Below, piece by piece: positions 1,779 through 23,396 of a stretch of 24,068 nucleotides of DNA; position 1 is the stretch's first letter; every line of letters starts with the position of its first letter. The notes beneath the pieces are model-generated. The model was not told where the DNA came from. It made no database searches and saw only the letters and a list, made by a program, of their open reading frames with translations. This DNA comes from a virus. Taxonomy: Duplodnaviria > Caudoviricetes. The DNA is taken from positions 1 to 24,068 of IMG/VR virus record IMGVR_UViG_3300033076_001532. One strand, given 5' to 3'. Made by a program: the position numbers and the translations under genes.

Positions 1779-1808
1779 TAAACTAAGACCAGTGAACAAC
1801 TGGTCTTA
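1779..1808 (+). promoter_or_regulatory. -10-like TAAACT (1779-1784) overlapping a perfect 10-bp hairpin that includes the A of ATG 1808
   Basis: TAAGACCAGT (1784-1793), loop GAACA, ACTGGTCTTA (1799-1808). Confidence 0.7.
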
Positions 1809-2239
1809 TGTCTACGCCAACTGCAGATATGCTTTATCAGCATAAAAAAACAGGTGCACGTGTCGAGATTGTAAGCGAATGGGATAACGGCGATTGGTTC
1901 ATGGTCAAAGACCAAGACGGTCGCCTTTATACCGCATACAAAACTGAACTCACACCTGATGAAGCGGCGACGAAGAAAGTAAAAACTCTTCGCGTTAAAG
2001 ATAAAGCATCGCAGGAAGAGCCGCGTACTTTCCCCCCGGACACACGCCTTAACATCAATGGCGCTACCCCACAAATGATCGCTGATCATATTAAAGGTAT
2101 CGGATTGAAGACAGCTCGAGAAATTAAAGATCTTCAAATGTCCTTATCGGGTGAAAGGTTTAACAATCTTGAACAGTTAAAGCAAATTAAACGGGTTGAT
2201 TGGGATGCGGTTTTAGCAGCTGATTTGATTCGAGTTTGA
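1808..2239 (+). CDS. Helix-hairpin-helix (ComEA-like) DNA-binding protein with a small N-terminal beta domain, 143 aa
   Basis: RLNINGATPQMIADHIKGIGLKTAREI...RFNNLEQLKQIKRV follows the ComEA HhH pattern (ININTA...LPGIGxxxAxxI...FxSxEDLxxV). Confidence 0.75.
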   Translation: MSTPTADMLYQHKKTGARVEIVSEWDNGDWFMVKDQDGRLYTAYKTELTPDEAATKKVKTLRVKDKASQEEPRTFPPDTRLNINGATPQMIADHIKGIGLKTAREIKDLQMSLSGERFNNLEQLKQIKRVDWDAVLAADLIRV

Positions 2240-2255
2240 TACTTATCTCCTACTG

Positions 2256-2281
2256 AACCCCTGGGAAACCAGGGGTTTTTT
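2256..2281 (+). terminator. Intrinsic terminator closing the capsid transcription unit
   Basis: AACCCCTGG-GAAA-CCAGGGGTT: a GC-rich stem with a GNRA tetraloop that runs into a T6 tract. Confidence 0.9.
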
Positions 2282-2307
2282 GCACGTAAAATAAGAAATA
2301 AAACAAC

Positions 2308-3042
2308 ATGGCATATCCTGTATTTCGATCTGGTTACACAGGCCCCAGTGGGAAAATTGGTGGAAGTACGGAGTATCACATTGATTTAAAGATGCTGCAA
2401 TCTTTACCGATTGCCGAGCGTGTTAAAGCAATGGACGCAGTAGCAAATCAATATGAATCGATAGGTCGGAATATTGAATTTTCAAATCCTGCAGTATCAG
2501 GCCGACGGTGGGATACTGCTGCAGATCTGGCTGCAAAAGTTGATTTATTAGAACGTGCTTCTGGAGCACATAGTCACAGTACACATCCTGGCTGGGACTC
2601 TTTTGATTTCTATGTACCCTTCAAAGGAAAAAGTAGATTTGATAAGGGAGCTGTAGAAGACGCTTCTATTTATCTCCCTGGAGTAGCAGGAGGCAAGATT
2701 CGTCGCGGTAGTGGAGGAGGGTATGGTTACTTTTCCGAGGCTTTAGATCCTAGTGGTAAGGTTGTTTTTCGTGTTGGTCATGGTAATGTTGATCGACCTG
2801 AAGCCGAAACAGAACTAGCTGTTACATCAGGGCAACCAGGAAATACTCCTACCTCTAGTAATGCAGATACAACTGAATCACGGCAAGATTTCCTAAAGCG
2901 TTACATGCAAGATCAATTGCAAACAACAATGATGCAGCAATTACTTAATCCACCGCAACAGACAAATCATCGAGAAGTTATGGAACAAATGATGAAATCA
3001 ATGGGAGGGCTTGGCATCATGCAAAATCCAATGAGCGTATAA
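2308..3042 (+). CDS. Putative virion-associated peptidoglycan peptidase, M23/LytM-like and apparently permuted, 244 aa
   Basis: M23-like segments GYTGPSG...STEYHID, HPGWDSFD and GGYGYFSEALDPSGKVVFRVGH, followed by an S/T linker and a Q/M-rich tail. Confidence 0.45.
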   Translation: MAYPVFRSGYTGPSGKIGGSTEYHIDLKMLQSLPIAERVKAMDAVANQYESIGRNIEFSNPAVSGRRWDTAADLAAKVDLLERASGAHSHSTHPGWDSFDFYVPFKGKSRFDKGAVEDASIYLPGVAGGKIRRGSGGGYGYFSEALDPSGKVVFRVGHGNVDRPEAETELAVTSGQPGNTPTSSNADTTESRQDFLKRYMQDQLQTTMMQQLLNPPQQTNHREVMEQMMKSMGGLGIMQNPMSV

Positions 3043-3065
3043 TATAAAACATACGGAACTAAGCT

Positions 3066-3527
3066 GTGCATCTCAGCGACTTCGATAAAAGTAGAGTCCG
3101 ATACCACCTCGGCTACTTCACGGTCACCGTACCGGCGGGCGATTATGCACGTCTGGAGGAAGCTATGAATACCATCCCGGATTCATACTTCTACGACAAA
3201 GTTATTATTCAACTTGGTCGTTGTGATACTGCCGAGAAGAAAACCGAAGTGGCAACTTCACCTTCTACTCGTATTGAAAATATTGCTGGTGACGTTGATC
3301 GTACAATTCGCTCCAGTAATGCCAGGGAATCGTTAAAAGTTTGGGATGAGATTTATCTCTACGAGACTAATCGATTAGCACAGATTCTTTACGTTCCAAA
3401 CTATAAAGATCCTTTCCAGGCTCGTTATCGTTACGAGCGTTCTGGTGGTGAGTTTATTCAGGCTTTACCTGGTCCAGCCGACACTGCTGTTGGTTCTCGC
3501 ATTTATTTACATGAGGTTTGGAGGTAG
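3066..3527 (+). CDS. Conserved-looking structural protein (head-tail adaptor candidate), GTG start, 153 aa
   Basis: ORF with native codon usage and TATAAT at 3038-3043. Function is inferred from size and position only. Confidence 0.45.
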   Translation: MHLSDFDKSRVRYHLGYFTVTVPAGDYARLEEAMNTIPDSYFYDKVIIQLGRCDTAEKKTEVATSPSTRIENIAGDVDRTIRSSNARESLKVWDEIYLYETNRLAQILYVPNYKDPFQARYRYERSGGEFIQALPGPADTAVGSRIYLHEVWR

Positions 3528-3529
3528 TT

Positions 3530-4462
3530 ATGGCTTGGTTTGATTTTCTTAATCAAGCAAACCCGCGTGGAAGAGATGCTGGTAGCATTGCTCGGCAGCG
3601 TTTATCCGGACGTAGCGCAATTCCTGCTGCAAAACCCACTACTGCAAAACCTACGTTACCTCGCGGAGCTGGTTTGGGAACAAGTTTTGCTTTGGGTTCT
3701 TTACTAGGTGATTACGTTGCTGCTCCTATTGCTGTAGGCATTGGAGATTATTTGCGTAGTGATCAAGGACAGCTTTTTAAAGACAGGTTAAGGCAAGGTG
3801 ATATTGGAGGAGCTTTTACCGCAGTAACTGGGTTTGGCCGCAGCAATGCTCCTGTTTTAAATCAATATAATCCTCCCGGTTTTATCCCTGGTTCTCAAAT
3901 TACTTCAAGCGATATTTTAAAATCCGCAACTGAAGTTGCAAGACAACGCCCACAAGAACGCATTGATCAGCGCACACCATTTACGCGTCCCCCCGGAACA
4001 AGTTCTTTCACACCGTTAGATCCGTACGCTGCACAAAACAGAGAGTACGAACGGGAGCGTGCTAGGGTTGAGGCAATGGTGAAAGCCAACCCAGACATGC
4101 AAAAGCAAGCGATTGCTGATGAACGTGCTAAGGTACGTGACCAAGGCATGGCAATTTGGGCCACAGCAAATCCTACTCTTGCAAAACAAGTAAAACCAGG
4201 CGCTGTTGGTTACGATGCTATTCAACGCGGTATTGGCATTCAATCAATTCCATCAATTGAGAACCGTGCCGAGTTTAGTTGGAACCAGGCTACTCAAGGC
4301 CCTACACCTGCCGTACCAATGGCAGACGCCATGCTGAACCCCGCATCTCCTAGCTTTATTGGTGGAGAAGGGCCGCCGCCTGTAAACTTTGCTGATCCAC
4401 GTTTTGAAAACATGAGTCCAGAAGAATTTCAAAAGCTTCTGAACCAGTACACTAAACGTTAA
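3530..4462 (+). CDS. Hypothetical internal virion (ejection-type) protein, about 310 aa
   Basis: Start moved to ATG 3530, which follows a GGAGGT SD. The protein is A/P/Q/G-rich with one hydrophobic Gly-rich stretch. Confidence 0.5.
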   Translation: MAWFDFLNQANPRGRDAGSIARQRLSGRSAIPAAKPTTAKPTLPRGAGLGTSFALGSLLGDYVAAPIAVGIGDYLRSDQGQLFKDRLRQGDIGGAFTAVTGFGRSNAPVLNQYNPPGFIPGSQITSSDILKSATEVARQRPQERIDQRTPFTRPPGTSSFTPLDPYAAQNREYERERARVEAMVKANPDMQKQAIADERAKVRDQGMAIWATANPTLAKQVKPGAVGYDAIQRGIGIQSIPSIENRAEFSWNQATQGPTPAVPMADAMLNPASPSFIGGEGPPPVNFADPRFENMSPEEFQKLLNQYTKR

Positions 4463-4467
4463 TTCTT

Positions 4468-4542
4468 GGCATTGCTCAGCATGTAAGCCCAACCTACTGG
4501 ATACGAATCTTTTGATTCACGGAGGCCAGTGTTGTTGCTTTT
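4468..4542 (+). ncRNA. Candidate structured RNA or long leader (family not recognised)
   Basis: Nested stems CAAC..ACTGG (4490-4500)/CCAGTGTTG (4526-4534) enclose GAATC-TTTT-GATTC (4505-4518). A T-run follows at 4539-4542. Confidence 0.35.
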
Positions 4543-4548
4543 AAACCA

Positions 4549-4665
4549 ATGATTCTCTGCCCTAATTTTGTTAAACGCTTAGCCACGAAAATCAGTCTTG
4601 TTACCGCATTACAAGCTGTATTTATCCCTGGTCTTAAAGCAAATTCAAATTGGGTAGGAGAATAA
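4549..4665 (+). CDS. Unannotated 38-aa small protein MILCPNFVKRLATKISLVTALQAVFIPGLKANSNWVGE
   Basis: Translated by hand. It fills an otherwise empty gap, has a basic N-terminus followed by a hydrophobic stretch, and stops just before the AGGAGGT SD of the next gene. Confidence 0.55.
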   Translation: MILCPNFVKRLATKISLVTALQAVFIPGLKANSNWVGE

Positions 4666-4678
4666 TTTAGGAGGTAAT

Positions 4679-5398
4679 ATGCCACCAAAAACGGTACAGC
4701 AATTATTTAACTTAAAGCCGGAAGAAGTTAACGCGCTTACGGTTCTTTCTGGATTAGAAGGATATCGTGGCGGCCGTGGTGAGGATGCAGCAGCAGTTGC
4801 TGCCAACGTACTTGCTCGGCGTTTAGCTGGTAACTGGGGTGGTGTTGACATTAGAAACATTGCTAAATCACCTGGTCAGTACGAGGCTGTTTTTGATTAT
4901 TCAATGCAGCAGCTCGCTGATCCAGCTTTTGGTGCTCAAAAATTAGGCGGCGAAGCTGAATACAATCGTATTCGCAATATTATTAACGACCCATCTTTGG
5001 TTGGTGAACAGTTTAGAAAATCCCAAGGTGCCCAGTCTTTTAGAGGTGTATCTGCATACGGACGCAAAAAACAAGGGGACTACATGCCAATCCCTGGTAA
5101 AAGTAATTATTACTTTGATCCGTTAAACCCTACTCTGTTTAACAAAGGCCTTGGTATTTTTGGAGCAGCTAATCAAACTAATGCAACCAATCCAAGCACA
5201 AGCCAACCACAACCAACAAGTGTAGCGTCTTCGTACGGCCCTACAGTTGAAGAAGCGATGGGCATTAAGTTGATGCAACAAGCGATGCAAGGAGCTCCTC
5301 AACCAAAGAATGCAGCACAACGCTTTGCTGATTTCTTAGGAGGTATTGGTAATAACTTAGGTGTTATTCCCAATCCGCTATCTACACCTGGTTATTGA
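4679..5398 (+). CDS. Cell-wall hydrolase, SleB/Hydrolase_2-like, probably virion-associated, 239 aa
   Basis: ALTVLSGLEGYRG..EDAAAVAANVLARR...IRNIAKSPGQYEAV parallels the SleB pattern (EARGE..GQxAVAxVxxNR...IxxVxxxPGQFxxV). It has a strong SD. Confidence 0.65.
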   Translation: MPPKTVQQLFNLKPEEVNALTVLSGLEGYRGGRGEDAAAVAANVLARRLAGNWGGVDIRNIAKSPGQYEAVFDYSMQQLADPAFGAQKLGGEAEYNRIRNIINDPSLVGEQFRKSQGAQSFRGVSAYGRKKQGDYMPIPGKSNYYFDPLNPTLFNKGLGIFGAANQTNATNPSTSQPQPTSVASSYGPTVEEAMGIKLMQQAMQGAPQPKNAAQRFADFLGGIGNNLGVIPNPLSTPGY

Positions 5399-5436
5399 AA
5401 CTCAGGTATAATGGTGGATATTAGTGCGTTAGAACC

Positions 5437-6225
5437 TTGGCTTCGACAAATACAAATAAGCAGCCCCTGTTAGTTGACAGGCCTCTTTTTGATTCAGTGC
5501 GAGTCACGACTCAAACTGTTGGAAGCGCGTCCACCAACACACTTTTTGTGCAAGGTGGACAAGCTCCGTCGATTCTTGTCGACATGGATGCCGCACTCCA
5601 AGAAGATAACAATAGTGGTGGCGTTGTTGATTCCATCACTATTGTGAGGAACGATTATTACCGCAATCCTGATTACACCTTAGAAACAGCGACTACCGGT
5701 ACTCGAGTTCGCTTAGTCAGTGGGCAGTCTGTTTACATTACGGCTACTGGGCTTAACACGCCTGCAGCAGAAAGTGGTCTTGGTTATTACACGTACACAG
5801 GCGCCACTGCGATTACCGGCACTCTGGGAACAATTCGTTATTCCGGTGTTGCAACCCCTGATGCAAGCGGTTTTTCTTACGCAGGAACTGTTGGCCCTTA
5901 TCAGCCAGAAGTAACTTTTGTCCTGTACCACACCCGTGGTACTACCCAACCAATTCCAGCGAGCGGTGATTACAAAGTTGTGTTTGCCAAGCGTGTTCCT
6001 GCCAATACGCAGCAGGTTGATTGCTCTGATGTGATGCCCCAACTTGCGGCCCCCAACCCAACCGCAGGTAACGCCTCTGGCCTTGCTGCTGGTGCCCCGC
6101 TACGCAACCGTGGCATCTACCTGGAACGTGGCGACCGTCTTTACGTTGGCGTCTTCCCAGACGGTCCTAATGCGTCTGGATACATCCCAGGTGCACATGT
6201 ATATGCCGAAGGTGGTTTCTTCTAA
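5437..6225 (+). CDS. Virion structural protein (tail or baseplate candidate), TTG start, 262 aa
   Basis: T/G/S-rich beta-like ORF with TATAAT at 5407-5412. Confidence 0.5.
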   Translation: MASTNTNKQPLLVDRPLFDSVRVTTQTVGSASTNTLFVQGGQAPSILVDMDAALQEDNNSGGVVDSITIVRNDYYRNPDYTLETATTGTRVRLVSGQSVYITATGLNTPAAESGLGYYTYTGATAITGTLGTIRYSGVATPDASGFSYAGTVGPYQPEVTFVLYHTRGTTQPIPASGDYKVVFAKRVPANTQQVDCSDVMPQLAAPNPTAGNASGLAAGAPLRNRGIYLERGDRLYVGVFPDGPNASGYIPGAHVYAEGGFF

Positions 6226-6227
6226 GT

Positions 6228-7772
6228 ATGTCAAAAAGAGGCAGCTCTTTTAACCCAAAAGGTACTGGTTCTTTTGGTGATTTTGGCAAGATAAAAGAAC
6301 AGATAAATCCCAAAGAAGTAAAGCCAATTCAAGGGGAGTTTTCCAAAGGATCACTCCCTGGTTCTATTTGGACCATTGACCGAGAATCGGCATGGTCGCG
6401 TTGGCGTAGAGGATACGAGATCTATTCAAATGGACAATATTTTACATATGAGTTTGAGTACAACATCCCAGACGTTACATTTGCACCTAGCCCTCCGGTT
6501 GTGATTCAAGGAGCCTTCATAGGCTTTCCAACAAAGAGTCGAGAGCTTGGTATGCACTGGTGTTTATGGCGTTATGCAGGAGCAATTAGAACTGACTTAT
6601 ATACAGATCCAATTACAACTAACAACCTATCTGTGGAATCAGTAACAGAAGATAAAAACTATTGGTACGTAAAATTAACAGGCAATTGGAGCCCAGCAAA
6701 CCCACTTCCTCCACCATTCTTTTTCCCTGGCGGACAAAAACCTTTAATATCAGAAGTCTTTGAAGATCGCATTGTTTCTTCAGGCGGTGAATTAATTGAG
6801 ATTGATACGATCAATCCAAATACACAAACACGATATGGCTATGTAAGCGCCGTGTTACTTACCATTGATGAGACAACTGGCATCCTTAAATTTAGAAAGT
6901 CGGGCTCCGTACAAGCAACCTCAGATGAAGAATTTGTAACACCATCTCCCATTGGGTTTACACCAGGACGCTACCTAAACTCTGGCGCACGGTATAGCTG
7001 TACTTGTCAAGATTTTACACGCCGTGATTACTTTTATGTGTCTTCTGAAAACCCCCGTAAGTTATTTCCAAGAACCAATATTGCCACTGTAAAACCAGGG
7101 CGTTTTGAACTTACTAAACGTGATGGGATTTTAAATACTGCCGCGCAGGTTGAACCGTCTATCAATCTTACTCTAGAAATTACAGCGCCACCTTCATTTG
7201 ATTTGACAAACCAGGTCAGCACCGATCGGGTCATCAGTCGTGATGCAACACGAGATAGCCCAGGCTTGTATGCAGATTTTGGAGGCACATACACACGTAA
7301 CCCTAATAATCTTGGAACACAAGGTTCATCAGCAGATGGTATGCCAACCTTTGCGGATTATACCTCTGTTACAGAAACTCTTGACAGCAATTCAATTCCA
7401 CAAAGTACGATCATCACTTTGGAAGATAGGTGGTCACCTGTACTTGATGAGCTGCGTTACTGCAAACACATCTATTCTCTTAAGTTTGCAGATCGTGTTT
7501 TTCCCCCGGAACCATCTGATTTCCCAACGGATATACCAAGTATGGCCGAGTGGGAAGCAGAGTTGGTAGCCAAAACAGACAGTGAATTAGAGTCTATTAA
7601 AAAAGATAGACTTGCTAGAGAGTCACTGTCAAGAATGGATGTTCCTCCGTATAACTGCCAATCTTTATCTGTGTATCCCATGTTGCAGCGTTTATTTAAC
7701 TTTGCTACAGATCGGATTGAAATACAAAACTTCACAATGATTGATCAATATGGGAATCGATCTCAACCGTAA
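6228..7772 (+). CDS. 514-aa protein with a split SWIM-type Zn-finger motif
   Basis: YSCTCQDF (Cys codons at 6999 and 7005) and RYCKHIYSL (Cys codon at 7461). Confidence 0.55.
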   Translation: MSKRGSSFNPKGTGSFGDFGKIKEQINPKEVKPIQGEFSKGSLPGSIWTIDRESAWSRWRRGYEIYSNGQYFTYEFEYNIPDVTFAPSPPVVIQGAFIGFPTKSRELGMHWCLWRYAGAIRTDLYTDPITTNNLSVESVTEDKNYWYVKLTGNWSPANPLPPPFFFPGGQKPLISEVFEDRIVSSGGELIEIDTINPNTQTRYGYVSAVLLTIDETTGILKFRKSGSVQATSDEEFVTPSPIGFTPGRYLNSGARYSCTCQDFTRRDYFYVSSENPRKLFPRTNIATVKPGRFELTKRDGILNTAAQVEPSINLTLEITAPPSFDLTNQVSTDRVISRDATRDSPGLYADFGGTYTRNPNNLGTQGSSADGMPTFADYTSVTETLDSNSIPQSTIITLEDRWSPVLDELRYCKHIYSLKFADRVFPPEPSDFPTDIPSMAEWEAELVAKTDSELESIKKDRLARESLSRMDVPPYNCQSLSVYPMLQRLFNFATDRIEIQNFTMIDQYGNRSQP

Positions 7773-7807
7773 GGGGAGCTTAGAATAAGTTAACGGCCAT
7801 TGACAGC

Positions 7808-10977: not shown

Positions 10978-10982
10978 TAATC

Positions 10983-11348
10983 ATGAGCGAACGTAAAAAA
11001 GCCGCTAAAGCGGCTAAACTCCACAAGGATTCAATGGCATGTAACAAGCCAAGAAAAACACCTGGGCACCCAACTAAATCGCACGTTGTAAAAGCATGTG
11101 AAGGAGGCGAAGAAAAAATTATTCGCTTTGGGCAACAAGGCGTAGAAGGCGCTGGTAAAAATCCAACCACAGCCAAGGACAAGGCGCGTAAGAAATCTTA
11201 TTATGCACGTCATAATGCTCAAGATCCCAACCCAGACAAGATGTCGGCAAGGTACTGGTCGCACAAGGTGAAGTGGACGATCTTAAGTGGTATGATAATT
11301 CCAGAGTTACTTCACACATGTCTTCACATTGGAACTACGTTGACGTAA
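10983..11348 (+). CDS. Small basic phage protein whose C-terminus is extended into the HNH cassette
   Basis: K/R-rich core (CNKPRKTPGHPTKSHVVKAC...IIRFGQQG...SYYARH...ARYWSHKVKW) followed by a compositionally different 23-aa tail. Confidence 0.7.
   Translation: MSERKKAAKAAKLHKDSMACNKPRKTPGHPTKSHVVKACEGGEEKIIRFGQQGVEGAGKNPTTAKDKARKKSYYARHNAQDPNPDKMSARYWSHKVKWTILSGMIIPELLHTCLHIGTTLT
11268..11315 (+). promoter_or_regulatory. Extended -10 TGgTATGAT (11288-11296) in the loop of a hairpin ending 2 nt before ATG 11318
   Basis: GTGAAGTGG (11268-11276) pairs with TTACTTCAC (11307-11315): 7 Watson-Crick plus 2 GU pairs. Confidence 0.55.
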
Positions 11349-11734
11349 AGTGTACGGTTTGCGGAATAGAAGGGAGCATTCGAATTGATCAGTACAATCG
11401 CAAGGGCAAACAATGGGTTTGTCGCTCATGTGCTTTTTCTGGTAGAAAATTAGACTTGAAAAACCCTTCTGCTAAGCATGATCCAATAAAAGTGGGAGCC
11501 TGGAAAAGTTATTGGAGAGCAAAAAAGCGCGTAAATGAAAATCATCACAACGCCTATGCTCACGTTGAGTTTAAGTTTAAATCTTTTGAAGAGTTTTACA
11601 AAGAAATGGGGCCAAGACCAGAAGGCAAGAGTTTAGATCGGATTGATCCTTGGGGGCACTACGAATCAGGTAATGTCAGATGGGCTACACACAAAGAACA
11701 ATGCAATAATAGAAGAAAGAATCACATAAGGTGA
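11318..11734 (+). CDS. HNH homing endonuclease with N-terminal Zn ribbon, 138 aa
   Basis: CTVC...CRSC and MGPRPEGKSLDRIDPWGHYESGNVRWATHKEQCNNRR. Start reassigned to ATG 11318, 21 nt after TATGAT. Confidence 0.85.
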   Translation: MSSHWNYVDVKCTVCGIEGSIRIDQYNRKGKQWVCRSCAFSGRKLDLKNPSAKHDPIKVGAWKSYWRAKKRVNENHHNAYAHVEFKFKSFEEFYKEMGPRPEGKSLDRIDPWGHYESGNVRWATHKEQCNNRRKNHIR

Positions 11735-11738
11735 AGTA

Positions 11739-11972: not shown

Positions 11973-11998
11973 GCTATCTGGGTCGACTTCTTACCAGT

Positions 11999-12121: not shown

Positions 12122-12129
12122 AAATTATG

Positions 12130-12156
12130 TATACTTGGGGTAACAACTGTTACCCC
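12130..12156 (+). promoter_or_regulatory. -10 TATACT (12130-12135) immediately before a GC-rich hairpin that ends 2 nt before the lysozyme ATG
   Basis: GGGGTAAC (12137-12144), loop AACT, GTTACCCC (12149-12156). Confidence 0.7.
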
Positions 12157-12158: not shown

Positions 12159-12788
12159 ATGGATAATTACAAGCAAGCAATTGATTTGATCTGTCGTTAC
12201 GAAGGATTCAATGAGCTTGCTTATCCAGATCCTCAAACAGGTGCAGAGCCTTACACGATTGGATTTGGAACGCAATATTATCCTGACGGCAGTGTTGTTA
12301 AACGCAGTCAATGCTGCACAAAACACAAAGCCTTAGAGTATCTTGTCGATGAGCTCACAGTTTTAAATACAGAGCTTTTAAAACTGAACCTGGGTCTAGA
12401 CGAGAACATGCACCAGGCATTGCTTTCCTTCTGTCATTCAGTTGGCTGGGAAAGTTTTCTATACAGCGCCATCATTGATTGCCTTGAAGTCGATGACTAT
12501 GCTGGTGTAACAGAAGAAATTGCTCGTTGGGTCTTTGATGCAGAGCACCAGGTTATTGGTGGTCTCTTGGAACGACGTAGAGAAGAAATTAACTTGTTTC
12601 TGTCTGATGTTGAATCCAAGCCTTGGGTCGCCACAGACGTACTATTGCGTGCGTTTAGAAGCTATGGAGCAAAGCCCCATGAGACTGAAGCAATACGGAC
12701 CTTAGAGGCAACGATTAACCCGTATGCCCTGGCTGAGTTTGCCAATAGTTTCAAGCTAGATGACACCTCTGCTTTTTCAAGTGACTAG
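12159..12788 (+). CDS. Phage lysozyme (GH24-like) with a C-terminal accessory module, 209 aa
   Basis: LICRYEGFNELAYPD...PYTIGFGT (E-x8-D...T), ALLSFCHSVG and GLLERRREEINLF. Confidence 0.9.
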   Translation: MDNYKQAIDLICRYEGFNELAYPDPQTGAEPYTIGFGTQYYPDGSVVKRSQCCTKHKALEYLVDELTVLNTELLKLNLGLDENMHQALLSFCHSVGWESFLYSAIIDCLEVDDYAGVTEEIARWVFDAEHQVIGGLLERRREEINLFLSDVESKPWVATDVLLRAFRSYGAKPHETEAIRTLEATINPYALAEFANSFKLDDTSAFSSD

Positions 12789-12821: not shown

Positions 12822-13118
12822 ATGGAGAACGAACCTACACGTAAAGAGTTTGAACTTCCTTTAGAGCTGCAGTTTGCCATGCGCAAAGCCGAACTGCAAA
12901 CAGAGGAGATGTGTTGGGAAGAGTTACAAGCTGCGCTATTAAACCTATATTTCCAACGAATGATGGAATGGGAAGCCGTCAAAGAAGTGATGTGCTCCGA
13001 AGGAATTGACATTGACTGGGATCTGCCTAGTGAGTTGGAATTAACTGAACTCGCCCTGGCTTGCATGCAGGACGAGTCGGACGATGATGACGACTTACAC
13101 TACGCACATCCTTTCTAA
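12822..13118 (+). CDS. nblA: NblA-like phycobilisome degradation adaptor with an acidic C-terminal extension, 98 aa
   Basis: ELPLELQFAMRKAELQTEEMCWEELQAALLNLYFQRMMEWEAVKEVM fits the NblA pattern LSLEQQFxxR...MSxxQxxxxLxxLYxQxxxxE. TAGAAT lies at 12794-12799. Confidence 0.7.
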   Translation: MENEPTRKEFELPLELQFAMRKAELQTEEMCWEELQAALLNLYFQRMMEWEAVKEVMCSEGIDIDWDLPSELELTELALACMQDESDDDDDLHYAHPF

Positions 13119-13141
13119 AGAATTTTGCATAGTGCATTGAT

Positions 13142-13175
13142 TTTTGCTATAGTGCATTTAGTGCTTATGGCAAAA
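13142..13175 (+). promoter_or_regulatory. -10 TATAGT (13148-13153) within the 5' arm of a long hairpin that includes the A of ATG 13175
   Basis: TTTTGCTATAG (13142-13152) pairs with TTATGGCAAAA (13165-13175), and GCAT/GTGC adds an inner stem. Confidence 0.65.
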
Positions 13176-13612
13176 TGAAACGTTTAAACCCAAAAACAAA
13201 TAAACCGTACAAACAAGGAGAACAACGAGAAGATGGTTATTATTTTTCGTGTTATTTGTTAAATAAAACAGATGAAAAAGGATGTTATTTAGAACGTTGG
13301 TATTCACCAATAACCTTTAAAAAATACAAAGAGAAAACAAAAAAACTAAACTGCGCAAACAATAAAAAGAAAAGAGAAGAGCGTAAAAAATATATTGATG
13401 CCTTAAAGACGTCAGAAGGGTGCTTTGACTGTGGATACAATAAGCACCCAGAAGCTTTACAGTTCGACCATCTTCCAGGTCAACAAAAATCTTTTGAAAT
13501 CTCAAAAGGAGTTCTTAAACCTCTAGATGAGGTTTTAAAAGAAATTAAAAAATGCCAAGTTGTGTGTGCATGTTGTCACGCAATACGCACACACAACCGC
13601 AGAACAAGATAA
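13175..13612 (+). CDS. HNH endonuclease, AT-rich and probably a mobile insertion, 145 aa
   Basis: CFDCGYNKHPEALQFDHL...EIKKCQVVCACCHAIRT. It is visibly more A-rich than its neighbours. Confidence 0.85.
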   Translation: MKRLNPKTNKPYKQGEQREDGYYFSCYLLNKTDEKGCYLERWYSPITFKKYKEKTKKLNCANNKKKREERKKYIDALKTSEGCFDCGYNKHPEALQFDHLPGQQKSFEISKGVLKPLDEVLKEIKKCQVVCACCHAIRTHNRRTR

Positions 13613-13927
13613 TTATTTGGAATCGTTTAGTTCTATTAAATGTTCTAAATACCATTTGCATTTTTTTAAATCCTGTACTCCGCCTTTATTTTTCCATCTC
13701 CATAAGTATTTAACACAGTTACCTCTTAAGTATCCTTCGTACTCTTCGATTGTCAACTGTGCTTCAATAGCTTCGATACACTCAATCCCACTTGCATCGG
13801 TGTAGTGAGAAGGATGGTTAACTACATCTTCTTTGATTACAGGAGATTTCTCAAGCGTAGCCCAGGGCACTGGACAAACACCATCTACACACCCATTGGT
13901 TTCTTCCACAGGGGAAAACATGTCCAT
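13613..13927 (-). CDS. DUF3310 / SaV-like protein (T7 gp1.7 nucleotide-kinase-related), 104 aa
   Basis: VNHPSHYT..GIECIEAI...GYLRGNCVKYLWRWKNKGGVQDLKKCKWYL. Confidence 0.85.
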   Translation of the reverse strand: MDMFSPVEETNGCVDGVCPVPWATLEKSPVIKEDVVNHPSHYTDASGIECIEAIEAQLTIEEYEGYLRGNCVKYLWRWKNKGGVQDLKKCKWYLEHLIELNDSK

Positions 13928-13960
13928 CGTAAAAATGCCGACTGAGACAGCCTAGCAGTC

Positions 13961-14326: not shown

Positions 14327-14363
14327 TGTTTTCTTAGCGATATATCCTTTCTATAATGATAGT

Positions 14364-15271: not shown

Positions 15272-15289
15272 AAATCCTCGATAGCTTGT

Positions 15290-15889
15290 TCAGTCTACAA
15301 GGAGATGACCACGCTCGCCGTAGATTTTACAAAAGCTTTCTACTGCATCTCCAGAGCGATCTTTAGGCGGTAGATACACCAAGAAAGAAGTGCACGTTTG
15401 TTTTTTCTCAACTTTTCCGTCAAGATTTCGCAGCAGATAAGGGACAGTCCGTAAAACGCACATAGGAAACTTGAAGATTTTTGGTTCGTATCGGATCATG
15501 TCCGGGCAGTTGCTGAAGTACAAGCCTTGTTCAATTTCATCTGCTAGCCAAGCGTGGTACATACGACGAAACCAAACGGCATGCGAAGAAGTCAACGTCA
15601 AGGACGAAGCACGTGTCATCTTCCACCGTTGGTTTTTTTGATCCCAAAAGTAGGATCCCGCTGGTGGGAACAAGTAGCAGCTCCCATACCACTGTTGGCT
15701 ATTTAAGCCATCATCCGAAGGAGTGTAGTACTCAGCTGCCTGTACATATTCATTGGCAACCTTAGAGCTAGCAACATCTAAATCAATGCCGCCTAATAGT
15801 TCGTTGGCTGCATGAACCAAATCTGCATTGGTAATTAATTCTGCACCTTCAACGCGTGCAGATACACCACGAATACCTTTTTCAGTCAT
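15290..15889 (-). CDS. Phage N6-adenine methyltransferase-like protein with a degenerate catalytic motif
   Basis: LGGIDLDVASSKVANEYVQAAEYYTPSDDGLNSQQWYGSCYLFPPAG follows the DLDPAS...DDGL..W.G..FLNPPY pattern. Start set at ATG 15889, overlapping the upstream stop. Confidence 0.7.
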   Translation of the reverse strand: MTEKGIRGVSARVEGAELITNADLVHAANELLGGIDLDVASSKVANEYVQAAEYYTPSDDGLNSQQWYGSCYLFPPAGSYFWDQKNQRWKMTRASSLTLTSSHAVWFRRMYHAWLADEIEQGLYFSNCPDMIRYEPKIFKFPMCVLRTVPYLLRNLDGKVEKKQTCTSFLVYLPPKDRSGDAVESFCKIYGERGHLLVD

Positions 15890-17135: not shown

Positions 17136-17186
17136 ACTGCACTCCGATTGATTAAATGCTAGTCTTTTGTAAACAACTTTGTGATC

Positions 17187-17483: not shown

Positions 17484-17526
17484 ATAAGCCGCCTTATAAT
17501 AAAGGAAAGAATTGCGCAGTAGATAG

Positions 17527-19320
17527 GTGGCAAACCGCCGTATTACCGAATTTCCTGCAATTGCAGCGAGCGAAATTGTAGACCAGGATGTCATGACCCT
17601 GGTCCACGTTTTCGAGGTGGACCCTTCACTGCGCAACAAAAAGATTACCTTTTCGCAGTTTAGAGATTACCTAGATCTTTACTATGCCCCTGGTAGCGGC
17701 GCTTTAATTAGTGGTAACGTCACGATTACTGGTAACTTAACAGTAGGTGGCAGCTCTAGTTTTAATACGGTAACCGCATCTGGTCTTAGTACCTTTAGTG
17801 GGATTGTTGTTCAAAACAATGCCATTGTCAGTGGTACTGTCAGTGGAAATACGCTAACGGGTACGTTTGTTCAAGGTAGTCAAGTCAATGCAGTAACAGG
17901 TACCTTTACAGCATTAGCTACTGGAACTACAGCATCTTTTTCAACGGGAAACTTTACAAGTCTCACGGGTACCACCGCGAGCGGTGTAAATGCTTTCTTT
18001 ACAAATGGCACGTTTACCAACGTAACAGGCACCACGTTTACAGGAACAACTGTTGCAGCAACCACGGGTACGTTCCAAGTCTTAGGTACACCCATTCTTG
18101 ACGTTAGTGGAAACTTATCTGTTGCCAGTGGATTAACGGTTACAGGAATTGCACAATTTGCAAACAGTGTAAGAGTCACTGGTACGTTATCAGGAACAAC
18201 AGTTACTGGAACTACTGCTCAATTTTCAACAGTCTCTGGTGTATCCGGAGTATTCACCACTCAAGTATCAGGTGCCACAATTACTGGCAATACGTTACTT
18301 GTTTCAAATGCAACAGGGATCTCCGGTACATTTACAACCAGGGTTTCAGGAGCAACCGTAACAGGTAATACGGGTGCATTTGGCAACGTTAATGGTATCT
18401 CGGGCGTTTTTACACAAGTTCTTTCTGGTCAAACAGTCACGGGAGATGCAGGCAATTTTGGAACAGTAACTGGTGTTTCCGGTGCGTTTACTAATTTATC
18501 TGGAGCAACTGTTACAGGCACTGTTGTTAACGCGGGGACAGTTACTTCGGTTACTGGTAATTTTGGCCGTGTGTCAGGCACAACAGTCACTGGTAACGCT
18601 GGACAATTTACAACGGTTACTGGTGGCACGGTTGCAGGAACAACAAGTATTTCAGGTGCAACAATTACGGGAAATGCGGGACAATTTACAACTGTCACAG
18701 GCATTACAGTTGTTGGCACAACTAGTGTCTCTGGCTTAACTGTTACAGGAAATACGCTACTTGCCACGAATTTAACCGGTCAAGTAGGAACATTTACAAC
18801 GAGTATTTCCGGCGCAACAATTACTGGCAACAGTATTTTAAGTACGTCGGGAAGGTTTCAAAATATCAGTGGTTTAGTTATTACCGGCGACACAATGCAA
18901 GCCGGATTAATTTCTGCTGTTTCAGGTGTTTTTACAAATATTGTTTTTGTTAATACGGTTGTTTCTGGTAACTTATCTGTACTAGGAACTGGTATTTTTT
19001 CCACTGGAGGAATCATTTCTTCCGGCTCAATTAGTGGAAGCAGTGTTACGGCACCAACAGGAACATTTACAACTCTTTCTGGAACAAGTGGTACTTTTGT
19101 TTCGCTAACAGGGACAACAACCACAGGTGTAACTGCAACATTCACAACGGTTTCTGGTGTCACAGTCACTGGTGCGACCGGTACATTTACCAATATCACC
19201 GGCAGTACACTCAGCGTAACAACACCATCTGGTGCAACACCTGCCATTGTTTGTTCTGGTGTTGTTTCAGGTGGTACAAGCGGATTTGTAATCCAAGGTC
19301 CGTTAATTATTCTTCCTTGA
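17527..19320 (+). CDS. T/G/S/V-rich repetitive tail fibre or spike-like protein, GTG start, 597 aa
   Basis: MANRRITEFPA N-terminus typical of fibre anchors, followed by many SGxTxTG / GxFT repeats and almost no charged residues. Confidence 0.7.
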   Translation: MANRRITEFPAIAASEIVDQDVMTLVHVFEVDPSLRNKKITFSQFRDYLDLYYAPGSGALISGNVTITGNLTVGGSSSFNTVTASGLSTFSGIVVQNNAIVSGTVSGNTLTGTFVQGSQVNAVTGTFTALATGTTASFSTGNFTSLTGTTASGVNAFFTNGTFTNVTGTTFTGTTVAATTGTFQVLGTPILDVSGNLSVASGLTVTGIAQFANSVRVTGTLSGTTVTGTTAQFSTVSGVSGVFTTQVSGATITGNTLLVSNATGISGTFTTRVSGATVTGNTGAFGNVNGISGVFTQVLSGQTVTGDAGNFGTVTGVSGAFTNLSGATVTGTVVNAGTVTSVTGNFGRVSGTTVTGNAGQFTTVTGGTVAGTTSISGATITGNAGQFTTVTGITVVGTTSVSGLTVTGNTLLATNLTGQVGTFTTSISGATITGNSILSTSGRFQNISGLVITGDTMQAGLISAVSGVFTNIVFVNTVVSGNLSVLGTGIFSTGGIISSGSISGSSVTAPTGTFTTLSGTSGTFVSLTGTTTTGVTATFTTVSGVTVTGATGTFTNITGSTLSVTTPSGATPAIVCSGVVSGGTSGFVIQGPLIILP

Positions 19321-19353
19321 TCTTCGGTTAAAATAGACAAAAAGAGACAACAA

Positions 19354-22302
19354 ATGACTTACGGAACAATTAAGGTTGATACGGTTACTTTTACCAATGA
19401 TGGTGTTGATAAGAGCGTTACGCTTTCTGGTTTAGTACAGAATCCTACCTTTAGTGGTAACGTCACTGTTACTGGTACTCTTTCTGGTGTTACTGTAACT
19501 GGTACAACTGCCAACTTTACGAGCGGTAATTTTACTAATATTAGTGGCGGTACTCATACTATTACATCGGGTGTATTTGCGGCAGGTAGTGCAGCAAGCC
19601 CTTCGATTACATTTACGGGTGATTTAAATACCGGTATTTACTCACCCGGCGCAGACCAAGTAGCCATCAGCACTGGTGGGTCTGGCAGGTTGTTTGTTGA
19701 TGCGAGTGGAAGGGTTGGTATTGGAGCATCCGGACCTGGATTCCCGCTTGAAGTGCGGGCTACATCAAGCACAGGCCAAGTACAGATACTTGGATCCGAC
19801 AACACAAACGCGACATGGAGACTTGCTACACCAAGCAATAGCGTTGTTGCATTTGGTGGCGCCCTAGCGCACGCAGTTGCTTTTGGTGGCTTTGATAATA
19901 CTACCCAAGCATTTAGCGAACGCCTGCGCATCACATCGGCAGGGCTCGTGGGCATTGGAACCAGTTCGCCTGGGTATTTGCTTGATGTTGTATCTGCCGG
20001 AGCGTCTGACATCCGGGTGAAAAGTGGAGGAGCTGGCAGTGCATACTTGCGGCTAGGAACAGCAACTAGAGATCATGCTATTTATTCAGATGCGTCAACA
20101 GGAAGCCTTGTTGCATACGACATCACGTCGGCAACAACTCGTCTTGTTATTGATTCCTCAGGCCGCGTAGGCATAGGGACTAGTTCGCCTGGCCGCAATC
20201 TTCATGTTGTAGGTTCAAGCGCCACTGCGTTAATCGAATCTACCGGAAGTACAAACGCTGATTTGCTAATTGGCGATGGCGGCGTTCGGTACTACGGTAT
20301 TAGAGGCGTCGCTGGAGGTGGTTCGCTTCAGATTCGCAATGACACTGCTAACACAACGCTTGCAACATTTACAAGCACAGGGCTAGTAGGGATTGGCACT
20401 ACGAGCCCTAGCGCGACTTTACAGGTATCCCCATCTTCTGGATCGGCAAACTTCCAAGTTAGCCGTGGTTCCAAAGGACTTCAGATCAATCAAGACAACG
20501 ATTCTGTTGATCCAAACATCAACACCATTGGTGCAACTGCGCTGAGGTTCCTTCGGGATGGTGGCGAGTCGATGCGTATTGATACGTCGGGACGGCTCCT
20601 AGTGGGCACGTCTAGTGCGCGTAGCAATTTCTTTAACTCAACAATCACAGCAGATCTTCAAGTAGAAAGTACAAACGGCATTGCGTCTATTATTAGAGAC
20701 ACTGCTGCAGCCGGCGGTCCGGCTTTAATCCTTGGGAAAACTCGTTCGGCAAGTGTCGGTGGAACAACCATTGTTCAGAACGGTGACTTAATTGGCGCTG
20801 TTAGTTTCCAAAGCAGTGACGGCTCTACGTTTATTGTTGCAGCTTCTGTTGAGGCATACGTAGACGGCACCCCTGGCGCTATTGACATGCCAGGGAGATT
20901 GGTGTTCTTCACTACTGCGGATGGGGCGAGTTCTCCGACAGAACGCCTACGCATCACATCGGCAGGGCTCGTGGGCGTGGGGACTAGTTCGCCTAGCTAT
21001 CGTTTACATGCAGTAGCCGCTAGCGAGCAAACAAATCCCGAGAGCGATTCAGGCGCTTACTGGCCGCTTCTTAATTCTAGTTCAACGCTAAATACATGCA
21101 GTGCGCTTGCTCTGGGTACCAACAATGACATAGGAACAGCTATTGTTGCCCAACGCGTTGGTGCCAATAATGAACATGTTATTAAGTTTCAAACAAGAAA
21201 TAGCAGCGGTTCATTAGGAACCAGAATGACCTTGACTGGCCCAGGGTCACTAGGGATTGGCACTACGAGCCCTAGCCAATTACTACACATTCAAGGCGCA
21301 AGTAATCCTGCCTTTTTAAGTCTGGATACAAGAAATAATGTGAATGCTTATATGTTTGCTGGGAACACTGAAGCGGTTTTTGGAGCAGGAAGCGCCCATC
21401 CAGTTACTTTCAGGGTCACGGATTTAGAAAGAGCGAGAATTGATACGTCGGGACGGCTCCTAGTGGGCACGTCTTCTACGTCTAGTGCTAGTGCTTTAGT
21501 CGTTCAAAACAACAGCTCTGGAAACGGAGTTGGAGTTGTGCGAATTAACTACAGCACAGATTCTCCAGGAGCTAACGATACCCTGGGCATTGTTTCTTTT
21601 GGCGACAACACACACGGTGAGTATGCAAGCGTTGCTGGATTAAGAGATGGTGGCACATGGAGTGGCTCATCGAAGCCAACGAGGCTTGTGTTCTCCACTA
21701 CTGCGGATGGGGCGTCTTCTCCGACGGAGCGGATGAGGATTACGAGTGCCGGCAAAATTCTATACAACACAGCAACTGCCGCAGCCAACACTGCAATTAC
21801 AATTACAGCATTTGATAATAGTGTTGGTGGAGCTGCAGTTGAACTCAATGGTTGGGGCAATGGCAGAGGCCATGCTATTCAATTTACAGCACATAACACA
21901 GCTAACGCAGATGTTGTATATTTCAATACATCTGCAGCCACTGTTGGTAGCATTTCAATTACCTCAACTGCGACTGCTTACAATACTTCTTCTGACTACC
22001 GTCTTAAAGAAAATATTGTTCCAGTTATTGATGGCATTATTCGCCTACAACAGCTAAAACCTAGTCGTTTTAACTTCCTTACTGATCCAAGTAAAGTAGT
22101 TGATGGTTTTATTGCACACGAAGTGCAGTCAGTTGTTCCCGAAGCTGTTACAGGAACCAAAGATGAAATTAGTCCTGACGGCACTCCGAAATACCAAGGC
22201 ATCGACCAATCCAAGCTGGTTCCACTGCTGACGGCTGCGTTGCAGGAAGCTGTTGCCAAGATTGAAAGTCTTGAAGCTCGCTTAACTGCGGCAGGCATCT
22301 AA
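19354..22302 (+). CDS. Long tail fibre with a C-terminal peptidase S74 intramolecular chaperone, 982 aa
   Basis: Repeated ERLRITSAGLVGIGTSSP / RIDTSGRLLVGTSS modules. From 21991: SDYRLKENI...GFIAHEVQ...PEAVTG...IDQSKLVPLLTAALQE. Confidence 0.9.
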   Translation: MTYGTIKVDTVTFTNDGVDKSVTLSGLVQNPTFSGNVTVTGTLSGVTVTGTTANFTSGNFTNISGGTHTITSGVFAAGSAASPSITFTGDLNTGIYSPGADQVAISTGGSGRLFVDASGRVGIGASGPGFPLEVRATSSTGQVQILGSDNTNATWRLATPSNSVVAFGGALAHAVAFGGFDNTTQAFSERLRITSAGLVGIGTSSPGYLLDVVSAGASDIRVKSGGAGSAYLRLGTATRDHAIYSDASTGSLVAYDITSATTRLVIDSSGRVGIGTSSPGRNLHVVGSSATALIESTGSTNADLLIGDGGVRYYGIRGVAGGGSLQIRNDTANTTLATFTSTGLVGIGTTSPSATLQVSPSSGSANFQVSRGSKGLQINQDNDSVDPNINTIGATALRFLRDGGESMRIDTSGRLLVGTSSARSNFFNSTITADLQVESTNGIASIIRDTAAAGGPALILGKTRSASVGGTTIVQNGDLIGAVSFQSSDGSTFIVAASVEAYVDGTPGAIDMPGRLVFFTTADGASSPTERLRITSAGLVGVGTSSPSYRLHAVAASEQTNPESDSGAYWPLLNSSSTLNTCSALALGTNNDIGTAIVAQRVGANNEHVIKFQTRNSSGSLGTRMTLTGPGSLGIGTTSPSQLLHIQGASNPAFLSLDTRNNVNAYMFAGNTEAVFGAGSAHPVTFRVTDLERARIDTSGRLLVGTSSTSSASALVVQNNSSGNGVGVVRINYSTDSPGANDTLGIVSFGDNTHGEYASVAGLRDGGTWSGSSKPTRLVFSTTADGASSPTERMRITSAGKILYNTATAAANTAITITAFDNSVGGAAVELNGWGNGRGHAIQFTAHNTANADVVYFNTSAATVGSISITSTATAYNTSSDYRLKENIVPVIDGIIRLQQLKPSRFNFLTDPSKVVDGFIAHEVQSVVPEAVTGTKDEISPDGTPKYQGIDQSKLVPLLTAALQEAVAKIESLEARLTAAGI
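19918..21725 (+). repeat. Four pairs of dispersed DNA-level direct repeats at tail-fibre module junctions
   Basis: 19918-19971/20941-20994 (49/54 identical), 20387-20412/21251-21276 (26/26), 20578-20613/21439-21474 (36/36) and 20902-20939/21688-21725 (35/38). Confidence 0.9.
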
Positions 22303-22390
22303 GTCCCCTTCACTCGTGACCCTGGCTGAACTATCTGGGAATCCCGGATAGTTCCCAACTCATCAGCCCGGCTTACAAGTCCACGTCACT
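22301..22390. repeat. Palindromic hairpin element flanked by a 14-nt imperfect direct repeat
   Basis: AAGTCCCCTTCACT (22301-22314) and AAGTCCACGTCACT (22377-22390) surround GAACTATCTGGG-AAT-CCCGGATAGTTC (22328-22354). Confidence 0.75.
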
Positions 22391-22427
22391 ACTTACTTCC
22401 TGTAAAATAGTAGAAAACATTGGTATT

Positions 22428-22751
22428 ATGGCTAACGCAACTTGGGATATTGCTCAGCTTGAGCGTAAGCTTCCTGATGGTGACACTTGTCCTGATGGTG
22501 CTGTCTACATTGCACACTGGACTGCTGCTTTGGAAGAGAACGGTGAATCGGTTGGCGCCTATGGCTCCGTTGGTTTTGGTGATCCAGACCCCGATAATTT
22601 TACTCCTTTTAGTGAACTGACCAAAGAGGAGGTTTTAAACTGGGTGTTTGAAACCCTTGGTCCTGACCAAATCGTCACTATTGAAGAAGGGTTGTACAAT
22701 CAACTCCAGCAAAAACTGAATCCAACCACAGAAGCTGGCGTACCTTGGTGA
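22428..22751 (+). CDS. Tail-fibre-associated small acidic protein, 107 aa (paralog 1)
   Basis: TWDIAQLERKLPD...AHW...GSVGF...FTPFSELTKEEVLNW...GVPW, directly after the fibre gene. Confidence 0.7.
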   Translation: MANATWDIAQLERKLPDGDTCPDGAVYIAHWTAALEENGESVGAYGSVGFGDPDPDNFTPFSELTKEEVLNWVFETLGPDQIVTIEEGLYNQLQQKLNPTTEAGVPW

Positions 22752-22785
22752 TTTTTGTTATACTCTTTGAAGTTATTTGTTCATT

Positions 22786-22968
22786 ATGGCTTGCAAAAAG
22801 TCTGAGCTGATCAGCGCCATTAATTCTTTTGGTGCTGCACGTGTTACCGGTGACGGCAATCTGATCGCTTTCTCCGGTAACCTCATCGGTCAACTGATTG
22901 AAACTCTTGAGTTTGAAGCAGAAGAAGAGGTCGCGCCTGCTATTGATCCTGAAGTTGTTGAGAGCTGA
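22786..22968 (+). CDS. Small acidic protein, 60 aa (tail-assembly chaperone candidate)
   Basis: ATG 22786 lies 21 nt after the extended -10 TGtTATACT (22756-22764). Confidence 0.6.
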   Translation: MACKKSELISAINSFGAARVTGDGNLIAFSGNLIGQLIETLEFEAEEEVAPAIDPEVVES

Positions 22969-22971
22969 GCA

Positions 22972-23343
22972 ATGAACAAAACTACCTGGGGAATTTCTTT
23001 GCTAGATCGAAGACTTCCTGATAGCGGTACTTACCCAGGTAGTGAAGTCACTGCAATCCACTGGTTTGCGTATCAGATGGCGGGTAAGTACACAGTCAGT
23101 ACTTCTGGCATTGTTGAACTTGCCCCCGCTGATCGCAGCAAGTGGGTGCCATACCTAAGCCTTGACAAAAACACGGTAATGGGTTGGTGTAAAGATGCGC
23201 TTACAGCAGATCGTGTCAAGGAAATTGAAAACGCTCTTGCTGAACGCGTTGATGCCGAACTGAACAAAGCATCTGGACTCCCTTGGGACGTACCAGATCC
23301 TTTGCCACCATTACCGCATCCACTTGGCTACGTGGAAGTTTAA
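22972..23343 (+). CDS. Tail-fibre-associated protein, 123 aa (paralog 2)
   Basis: TWGISLLDRRLPD...IHW...SGIVEL...WVPYLSLDKNTVMGW...GLPW aligns with 22428-22751. Confidence 0.7.
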   Translation: MNKTTWGISLLDRRLPDSGTYPGSEVTAIHWFAYQMAGKYTVSTSGIVELAPADRSKWVPYLSLDKNTVMGWCKDALTADRVKEIENALAERVDAELNKASGLPWDVPDPLPPLPHPLGYVEV

Positions 23344-23348
23344 AAAAC

Positions 23349-23396
23349 TGCGATACTACTATCAGTTAAAATAAAACAACTGGCAGTAGTATCGTG
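23349..23396 (+). promoter_or_regulatory. About 19-bp hairpin that buries the endolysin GTG start, with -10 TAAAAT (23367-23372) at the arm/loop boundary
   Basis: TGCGATACTACT-AT-CAGTT, loop AAAATAAAAC, AACTG-GC-AGTAGTATCGTG. It has one A.C mismatch and three GU pairs. Confidence 0.8.

Follow-up and report, generated by a model that had tools for sequence, protein, structure and literature searches.

Conserved start hairpins beside the promoter boxes of a few genes in an S-EIV1-like freshwater Synechococcus phage

The DNA analyzed here, IMG/VR record IMGVR_UViG_3300033076_001532 over its whole 24,068 bases (hereafter, the window), belongs to an S-EIV1-like freshwater Synechococcus phage. We show that a small set of genes in this phage and its relatives, each preceded by a TAnnnT promoter box, carries a conserved hairpin at the translation start. 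This hairpin likely blocks translation from read-through transcripts and would be lost from the short transcript made by the gene's own promoter. The boxes and their spacing, the hairpins, their covariation, their restriction to about one in seven box-bearing gene families, the leaders devoid of Shine-Dalgarno (SD) sequence, and the lack of a sigma-70-type gene in five relatives are all observed. The initial annotation of the window had gone further and proposed such gating throughout, for metabolic, structural, and DNA-binding genes on both strands. This does not stand: 24 of the 32 window genes have a box at -35 to -21, but only three keep a hairpin in their homologs, i.e., those of a weak helix-hairpin-helix (HhH) protein (starting at 1808), a lysozyme (12159), and a GH73 endolysin (23394). 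These three were named by family scans, as were a dCTP deaminase (dcd) and three HNH nucleases. The window capsid protein is 84.8% identical to that of S-EIV1 (KJ410740) over its full 309 residues, and the block running from capsid to lysis genes is homologous and syntenic between the two, with the same order of genes.

The promoter boxes themselves are real, as had been proposed. Before the 32 gene starts analyzed, 21 TAnnnT hexamers begin at a distance of 24-30 nucleotides (nt), against 3.0 expected from the window-wide frequency, an expectation that AT-rich spacers push slightly up. Because several of these starts had been chosen by eye, the count was repeated in homologs. Among 391 non-redundant homologous leaders, 58, 45, and 60 boxes are found at -29, -28, and -27, versus 1-16 per position between -75 and -35, so that the spacing is conserved in relatives. 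A genome-wide set of 12 records, in which S-EIV1 and the window are joined by ten IMG/VR records (99 testable gene families), was then considered with starts taken from protein alignments only. The peak holds there on both strands, and 42 of the 99 families are box-bearing, i.e., have a box in at least three quarters of their members.

Seven nt past the hexamer, the frequency of A peaks, at 75% of 130 leaders; a second count gave 78% of 157 leaders for the capsid strand and 54% of 129 for the opposite one. The predicted +1 was a purine in all six window leaders checked. Box and A peak fit the promoters of S. elongatus, which have a -10 element without a strong or fixed -35 and prefer A at +1 (PMC3219970). 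Transcription would thus begin about 7 nt past the box, giving predicted leaders of about 15-17 nt. A TTG -35 occurs in only 4 of the 43 families listed, all of them on the strand opposite the capsid gene, and no distinct late-promoter motif was seen among the box-bearing families examined. By eye only, the boxes of gated genes seem further from TAnAAT than ungated boxes of the capsid strand. Since no Sigma70_r2 match was found in any of five records, three of them at least 90% complete, the host polymerase is the likely reader of these boxes; a non-sigma activator is still conceivable. An SD core (GGAG, GAGG, or AGGA at -15 to -5) is present in 1 of 47 gated leaders versus 31 of 254 other box-bearing leaders. 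The argument, made initially for some genes, that the hairpin covers the SD is therefore weak.

Nine start-occluding hairpins had been named in the window. All nine stretches can be folded where they were placed, though a stem can be drawn near many starts:
1784-1808, plus strand: hairpin of the HhH gene, 10 perfect base pairs (bp), -13.9 kcal/mol
5404-5437, plus strand: hairpin of gene 5437, -4.9 kcal/mol
11268-11315, plus strand: hairpin of HNH gene 11318, -9.5 kcal/mol
12137-12156, plus strand: lysozyme hairpin, 8 bp, -12.4 kcal/mol
13142-13175, plus strand: hairpin of HNH gene 13175, -13.2 kcal/mol
15275-15303, minus strand: dcd hairpin, -9.3 kcal/mol
17136-17163, minus strand: hairpin of the HTH (helix-turn-helix) gene, -5.1 kcal/mol
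17488-17531, plus strand: hairpin of gene 17527, -10.8 kcal/mol
23349-23396, plus strand: GH73 hairpin, -20.6 kcal/mol

In our test, the energy needed to open the start region was compared with that of shuffles in which randomization was confined to sequence lying before the predicted start site, the box being kept. Window p values are given as pairs for two metrics and are uncorrected for 32 tests; homologs were scored at p<0.05 on up to 14 non-redundant leaders per family. In the window, a folding excess over the shuffled controls was found for GH73 and dcd on both metrics and for lysozyme and HhH on one each; the stems of HNH 11318, 5437, 17527, and HTH are at chance, and that of HNH 13175 is uncertain. 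Compensatory changes in relatives were found for HhH, lysozyme, and GH73, but the hairpins of genes 5437, 17527, HTH, and HNH 11318 are unconserved in homologs. Hence, three of the nine hold, two (dcd and HNH 13175) are lineage-restricted or open, and four fail. In every other window family, no more than 2 of 14 homologous leaders passed.

The HhH gene is organized as follows:
1779-1784, plus strand: -10-type box TAAACT, whose final T is the first base of the hairpin; AAACT is invariant in 22 distinct leaders
1784-1808, plus strand: start hairpin, with most of its 5' arm between box and predicted start site, its 3' arm ending on the A of the start codon
1808-2239, plus strand: HhH gene, 143 amino acids (aa), weak helix-hairpin-helix match, downstream of the capsid genes and last before a terminator

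The predicted +1 is A1791. Among homologs, 5 of 5 leaders passed, and 4 of 4 in a second draw; over 22 leaders, 96.8% of cells are paired and 14 changed on both sides, a value that none of 500 shuffles reached. In the window, the p values are 0.87 and 0.013. The former arises because an upstream 7-mer competes for the 5' arm, and this 7-mer is not kept by relatives. A switch of the HhH gene operated by the 7-mer, which lies at the end of gene 960, was considered and rejected, the 7-mer being neither conserved nor covarying. As for the protein, the Pfam HHH_3 match (E 2.4e-4) is below the cut-off, HHH_3 is found in 17-26% of the members of its Atlas clusters, and PHROGs, PDB (no hit), and Atlas add nothing past this weak match.

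The lysozyme gene presents a comparable arrangement:
12130-12135, plus strand: -10-type box TATACT, with a box in 13 of 13 non-redundant homologs
12137-12156, plus strand: start hairpin ending 2 nt before the AUG, its 5' arm between the box and the predicted start site
12159-12788, plus strand: phage lysozyme gene (Pfam Phage_lysozyme, E 2.5e-18; PHROG endolysin)

With a predicted +1 at A12142, the hairpin has p values of 0.007 and 0.07 in the window, and 9 of 13 homologous leaders passed (6 of 12 in a second draw). Over 36 leaders, 78.5% of cells are paired and 39 changed on both sides, again with 0 of 500 shuffles as high, and G.U outnumber A.C on the mRNA strand by 49 to 19. Right after the lysozyme gene, a weak NblA-like match (Pfam E 5.7e-4, below the cut-off) with its own box was observed at 12822-13118.

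The GH73 gene carries the longest of the three stems:
23351-23394, plus strand: long hairpin with 10 perfect and 6 inner bp, whose 3' end is the first base of the start codon, with the box at the loop
23367-23372, plus strand: -10-type box TAAAAT, with a box in 33 of 40 non-redundant homologs
23394-24068, plus strand: GH73 glucosaminidase endolysin gene, running off the contig (Pfam Glucosaminidase, E 6.3e-20; PHROG endolysin, E 5e-75)

The predicted +1 is A23379. In the window, the hairpin stands far above its shuffles (p 0.003 and 0.0025; z 7.0-7.6); among homologs, 8 of 14 leaders passed, 4 of 13 in a second draw, and 17 of 40 when all leaders were taken. In most GH73 relatives, the corresponding position is occupied by another stem, whose 5' arm contains the box. 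In this main clade, 93% of cells are paired and 18 changed on both sides, which none of 500 shuffles matched; the alignment comprised 42 of the 62 distinct leaders, selected by box type and excluding the window's own clade. G.U outnumber A.C on the mRNA strand by 85 to 9. The window stem is unrelated in sequence to the main-clade stem, yet it lies at the same place: the hairpin has been rebuilt in two clades.

Because the covariation shuffles ignore kinship, the pairs were also mapped onto trees of the coding sequences. This gave at least 6 Watson-Crick-to-Watson-Crick changes for HhH, at least 19 for lysozyme, and at least 14 for GH73; independent pairs changing the same way amount to 2.6, 6.4, and 8.9, versus 0, 0.3, and 0.5 changing the opposite way. 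Such changes also bear on the idea that the inverted repeats act as DNA, either as operators of a dimeric protein or as extruded hairpins tuning the promoter. Hairpin extrusion is the way of the early promoters of phage N4. All the inverted repeats do overlap or abut the -10 box, and the HhH stem is nearly invariant and strand-symmetric. However, the stems of different genes have no sequence in common, compensatory pairs accompany a full turnover of sequence, and G.U is favored on the mRNA strand. The sequence sharing among sites or relatives that operators would display was not found, HhH alone being near-invariant, and we regard a DNA-level role as quite improbable.

The extent of gating was then determined in the genome-wide set. 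With an opening window restricted to -12 to +3, 4 of the 99 families stand out. With the whole leader as opening window, a family was called gated when it is box-bearing and at least half of its members have p<0.05, and 6 of the 42 box-bearing families are. Besides HhH, lysozyme, and GH73, these comprise the terminase large subunit (Pfam Terminase_6C), a gene for a 70-aa acidic protein, and a 77-aa gene located directly upstream of DNA polymerase A. In the remaining 36, hairpins do not exceed chance (11 of 217 sequences with p<0.05, median z -0.5), and the same applies to the box-less families (9 of 227 sequences). Hairpins are thus commoner in box-bearing families (6 of 42) than in box-less ones (1 of 45). 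Thus, gating is selective and concerns about one in seven promoter-bearing genes. That most genes would be translatable only from their own promoter could draw on the facts that most spaced genes own a box and that some stem is drawable at many starts. Given 36 families out of 42 at chance, a gene 5437 more open than its own shuffles, and the unconserved stems of 17527, HTH, and HNH 11318, a general gating is hardly credible. The claim of scale has to be lowered likewise: gating occurs at about the scale of T4, for which at least ten genes are named in two reviews, and not at a larger one.

Among the additional families, the stem of the terminase begins in or just after a TAGTAT box in nearly all 11 non-redundant leaders (L165:9414-10941 and homologs), 4 of which pass and 10 of which have z of at least 1.5. 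The 70-aa gene (L002:36727-36949) has an invariant TATCCT box within a GC-rich stem of 10-13 bp whose sequence turns over between relatives, and 4 of 6 leaders pass. The 77-aa gene lacks an annotation in S-EIV1 (L002:32496-32730; also L380-L447), and the start annotated for DNA polymerase A overlaps with it. No stronger hairpins were seen than those of its leader, which go down to -28 kcal/mol, with stems of up to about 20 bp of changing sequence and the -10 box inside; 17 of 31 leaders pass, and a TTG -35 is present in 5 of 6. Pfam gave no match for either the 70-aa or the 77-aa gene. A glycosyltransferase was considered as a seventh gated family; with 1 of 9 and 3 of 8 leaders passing it falls below the bar and remains a candidate. 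Its leaders (L002:8074-9343 and homologs) show 7-bp stems of the lysozyme type, with changing sequence, in most of the 9. Among box-less families, family 50 has 2 of 4 leaders passing.

The mechanism that we favor for the gated genes can be formulated in a few steps. The host RNA polymerase would start about 7 nt past the TAnnnT box, and the resulting leader of 15-17 nt, deprived of most of the 5' arm, would be unstructured and translated. By contrast, RNA coming from an upstream promoter would hold both arms, fold, and stay untranslated. The output of a gated gene would then be tied to its own promoter alone, and the dose, possibly the timing, would be capped for proteins whose overproduction or premature appearance is harmful, namely the wall hydrolases, the terminase, and a DNA-binding protein ending the capsid transcript. 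As no separate late promoter class was found, we lean toward dose rather than timing as the benefit. Each gated gene of the window is preceded on its strand by genes that have boxes of their own. Three kinds of geometry are observed for the 5' arm: between box and start site (HhH, lysozyme), including the box (GH73 main clade, terminase), or flanking the box (window GH73, 77-aa gene). In models of the six gated families, the median opening cost is 11.2-16.7 kcal/mol on long RNA and drops to 0-0.9 kcal/mol once the transcript begins 7 nt past the box. That one predicted start undoes all three geometries argues for the proposed mechanism. Moreover, SD-less starts require local unfoldedness (PMC3121790), hence strong silencing is expected where the end of the stem is within 0-2 nt of the start codon. 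Covariation, geometry, and the T4 precedent are thus in agreement with the mechanism for the three window genes.

Several observations nevertheless weigh against it. The 5' ends of the transcripts are predicted only, and the RNA data (15 runs, four of which aligned) consist of assembled contigs whose depth is flat over the region, without start or end sites, and give no evidence either way. The hairpin is not universal within the gated families (17 of 40 leaders for GH73, 4 of 11 for the terminase, 17 of 31 for the 77-aa gene). On the trees, which are quick FastTree reconstructions on 420 nt, no single base pair reaches significance, and change counts can be inflated by recombination. A G-rich 5' arm and a T-rich 3' arm favor G.U through composition alone. 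Concerning HhH, 6 of the 10 pairs never vary, G.U and A.C number 1 and 2, there is no strand asymmetry (the plus strand is more stable in 8 of 21), and in the window the upstream 7-mer can compete for the 5' arm.

The main rival is a promoter placed inside a terminator: just ahead of the start codon, the stems would halt or weaken transcription reading through from upstream, and RNA from the internal promoter, lacking the 5' arm, would pass. Cyanobacteria lack Rho and use intrinsic hairpins, some of which terminate only partly (PMC3219970), and the stems of the 70-aa and 77-aa genes, which are GC-rich, frequently have T-rich tails behind them. On the other hand, at least five T within 8 nt after the stem are rare (HhH 2 of 12, lysozyme 3 of 30, GH73 1 of 42), and the 3' arms of the three window genes end 0-2 nt from the start codon. 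A genuine terminator of the window, in contrast, lies wholly upstream of the next box:
2256-2283, plus strand: canonical intrinsic terminator with GC stem and T run, -18.7 kcal/mol, conserved in relatives, ahead of the box of gene 2308

This terminator insulates gene 2308, which has its own box and no start hairpin (0 of 6 leaders gated). Since the HhH gene is the last before it, RNA of the capsid region would run through the HhH gene. The best match of an Rfam scan is sub-threshold (E 0.26), at 2220-2280 on this terminator, with nothing above threshold. Overall, 23 terminator-like sites were counted in the window versus 19.2 ± 4.2 in shuffles, so that a genome with few terminators, part of the initial rationale, is neither shown nor refuted. 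Taken as a general account, termination appears unlikely to us; it is unlikely for the three window genes and open for the 70-aa and 77-aa genes. Like the Synechococcus terminators with partial read-through described in PMC3219970, the hairpins are short intergenic stems setting relative output; unlike them, the three window stems mostly lack a T run and overlap the promoter and start region of the next gene.

The stems could also serve RNA processing or 3'-end protection, by stabilizing the upstream message (e.g., the capsid transcript) or as nuclease sites, their proximity to the start being incidental. With only about 35-40 nt between genes, a stem in such a spacer cannot avoid overlapping a box or leader, and the HhH stem directly follows the capsid genes. 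We give this explanation little credence: in every case the stem extends into the footprint of the ribosome and is divided by the predicted start, most spacers of similar shortness are stem-free, and harmful products (both lysins, terminase) are over-represented among the gated genes.

Translational gating of this kind is known in T4. On long transcripts, the start region of the T4 lysozyme gene e is sequestered by a hairpin, with an effect of about 100-fold; a promoter just upstream gives an RNA without the 5' strand, which is well translated, and related phages have retained the arrangement (PMC3014915). The same logic is found in T4 soc, 49, 25, 26, 39, I-TevI, I-TevII, I-TevIII, and segB and in Aeh1 mobE (PMC3014915, PMC2988022). 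In PMC3014915, the T4-like cyanophages Syn9, S-PM2, P-SSM2, and P-SSM4 are described as having no apparent gene e. As in gene e, the lysozyme start region of the window lies in a stem; a gene-proximal promoter is predicted here, and its start would remove most of the 5' arm. As in the other genes (PMC2988022), the promoter is in or beside the 5' arm and the genes lie within polycistronic transcripts. There are also differences. T4 relies on the phage sigma factor gp55 and TATAAATA late promoters, whereas here the boxes are host-type TAnnnT on both strands, in a group with no Sigma70_r2 in the five records. The T4 stem sequesters the SD, whereas 46 of 47 gated leaders have no SD core here, and the stem covers an SD-less leader, reaching the first base of the start codon at HhH and GH73. 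According to PMC2988022, every gated gene of the T4 type is late and is carried on messages of the early or middle class; here, the replication-gene region contains two of the gated genes, including the one with the TTG -35. Unlike the I-TevI-type genes, the window's own HNH genes show no conserved gating. Working like T4 without SD sequestration and without a phage-sigma late promoter, the system is a variant of the T4 logic, probably of convergent origin.

If this is correct, the T4 way of silencing lysozyme on read-through RNA has evolved a second time, in a freshwater cyanophage lineage that is widespread and unrelated, there without phage sigma factor or SD and extending to a terminase and the leader of a replication operon. 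A new regulatory principle is not established. No description of such gating in cyanophages was found in a literature search, which lacked most subscription papers, the S-EIV1 description included, so that absence from print is not established. Practically, these elements are candidates for compact (about 35 bp) promoter-plus-insulator parts in Synechococcus, and the fixed distance from box to start helps to correct start codons in a poorly annotated group. A more ambitious picture can be drawn, which we put forward as tentative and rather doubtful in its entirety. In it, the genome would have nearly one promoter per gene, read by the host polymerase, with SD-less leaders of 15-17 nt, and structure alone would decide translation. 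Self-cancelling hairpins, independent of T4 and rebuilt several times, would insulate two lysins, the terminase, the HhH gene, and the gene leading DNA polymerase, fixing dose and not early or late timing, the -10 box doubling as a repressing strand.

The remaining named cases are of several kinds. Their features are as follows:
15275-15303, minus strand: dcd leader hairpin, surrounding the box TAGACT (15292-15297)
13142-13175, plus strand: leader hairpin of HNH 13175, holding the box TATAGT (13148-13153)
11268-11315, plus strand: stem of HNH 11318, whose box TATGAT (11291-11296) is conserved while the stem is not

The dcd hairpin is above chance in the window's sub-lineage (p 0.007 and 0.02) but not in homologs (1 of 14; second draw 2 of 13). 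That of HNH 13175 has a window p of 0.11 and pairs better in an 85% relative (p 0.03), but it is missing from two distant relatives and only 1 of 4 leaders passes. At HNH 11318, none of 8 non-redundant leaders has p<0.05. Gating is equally unsupported for gene 5437 (0 of 14 homologs, with a start more open than its own shuffles, z -1.8), for gene 17527 (2 of 14, stem not conserved), and for the HTH gene (0 of 13, stem not conserved). The HTH gene, on the minus strand, is divergent from gene 17187 on the plus strand; their back-to-back -10 boxes overlap by 2 bp (17156-17165) and are kept so in relatives, and the two promoters may therefore exclude each other. In a relative from run X1, most of HNH 11318 is gone by internal deletion (window 11353-11700), the promoter being retained, and other sequence stands in place of HNH 13175 (window 13111-13763). 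From these losses, both HNH genes look like mobile, decaying nucleases. The open reading frame (ORF) at 10983 extends 31 nt into HNH 11318.

Other features of the genome were observed in passing. A 12-bp hairpin with one G.U and no T run lies between the tail-fibre gene and gene 22428 (22328-22354). The 216-nt gap at 4463-4678, with a 38-codon ORF (4549-4665), is matched by contigs of several RNA runs and has no Rfam hit. Perfect inverted repeats of at least 8 bp number 20 in the window, versus 4-13 in 12 shuffles, and are mostly intragenic. Finally, the S-EIV1 capsid region (KJ410740 60784-62010; L001:21785-23011) is annotated as one ORF on the reverse strand and a short one on the forward strand; as it matches the window capsid over all 309 residues, this annotation is likely wrong.

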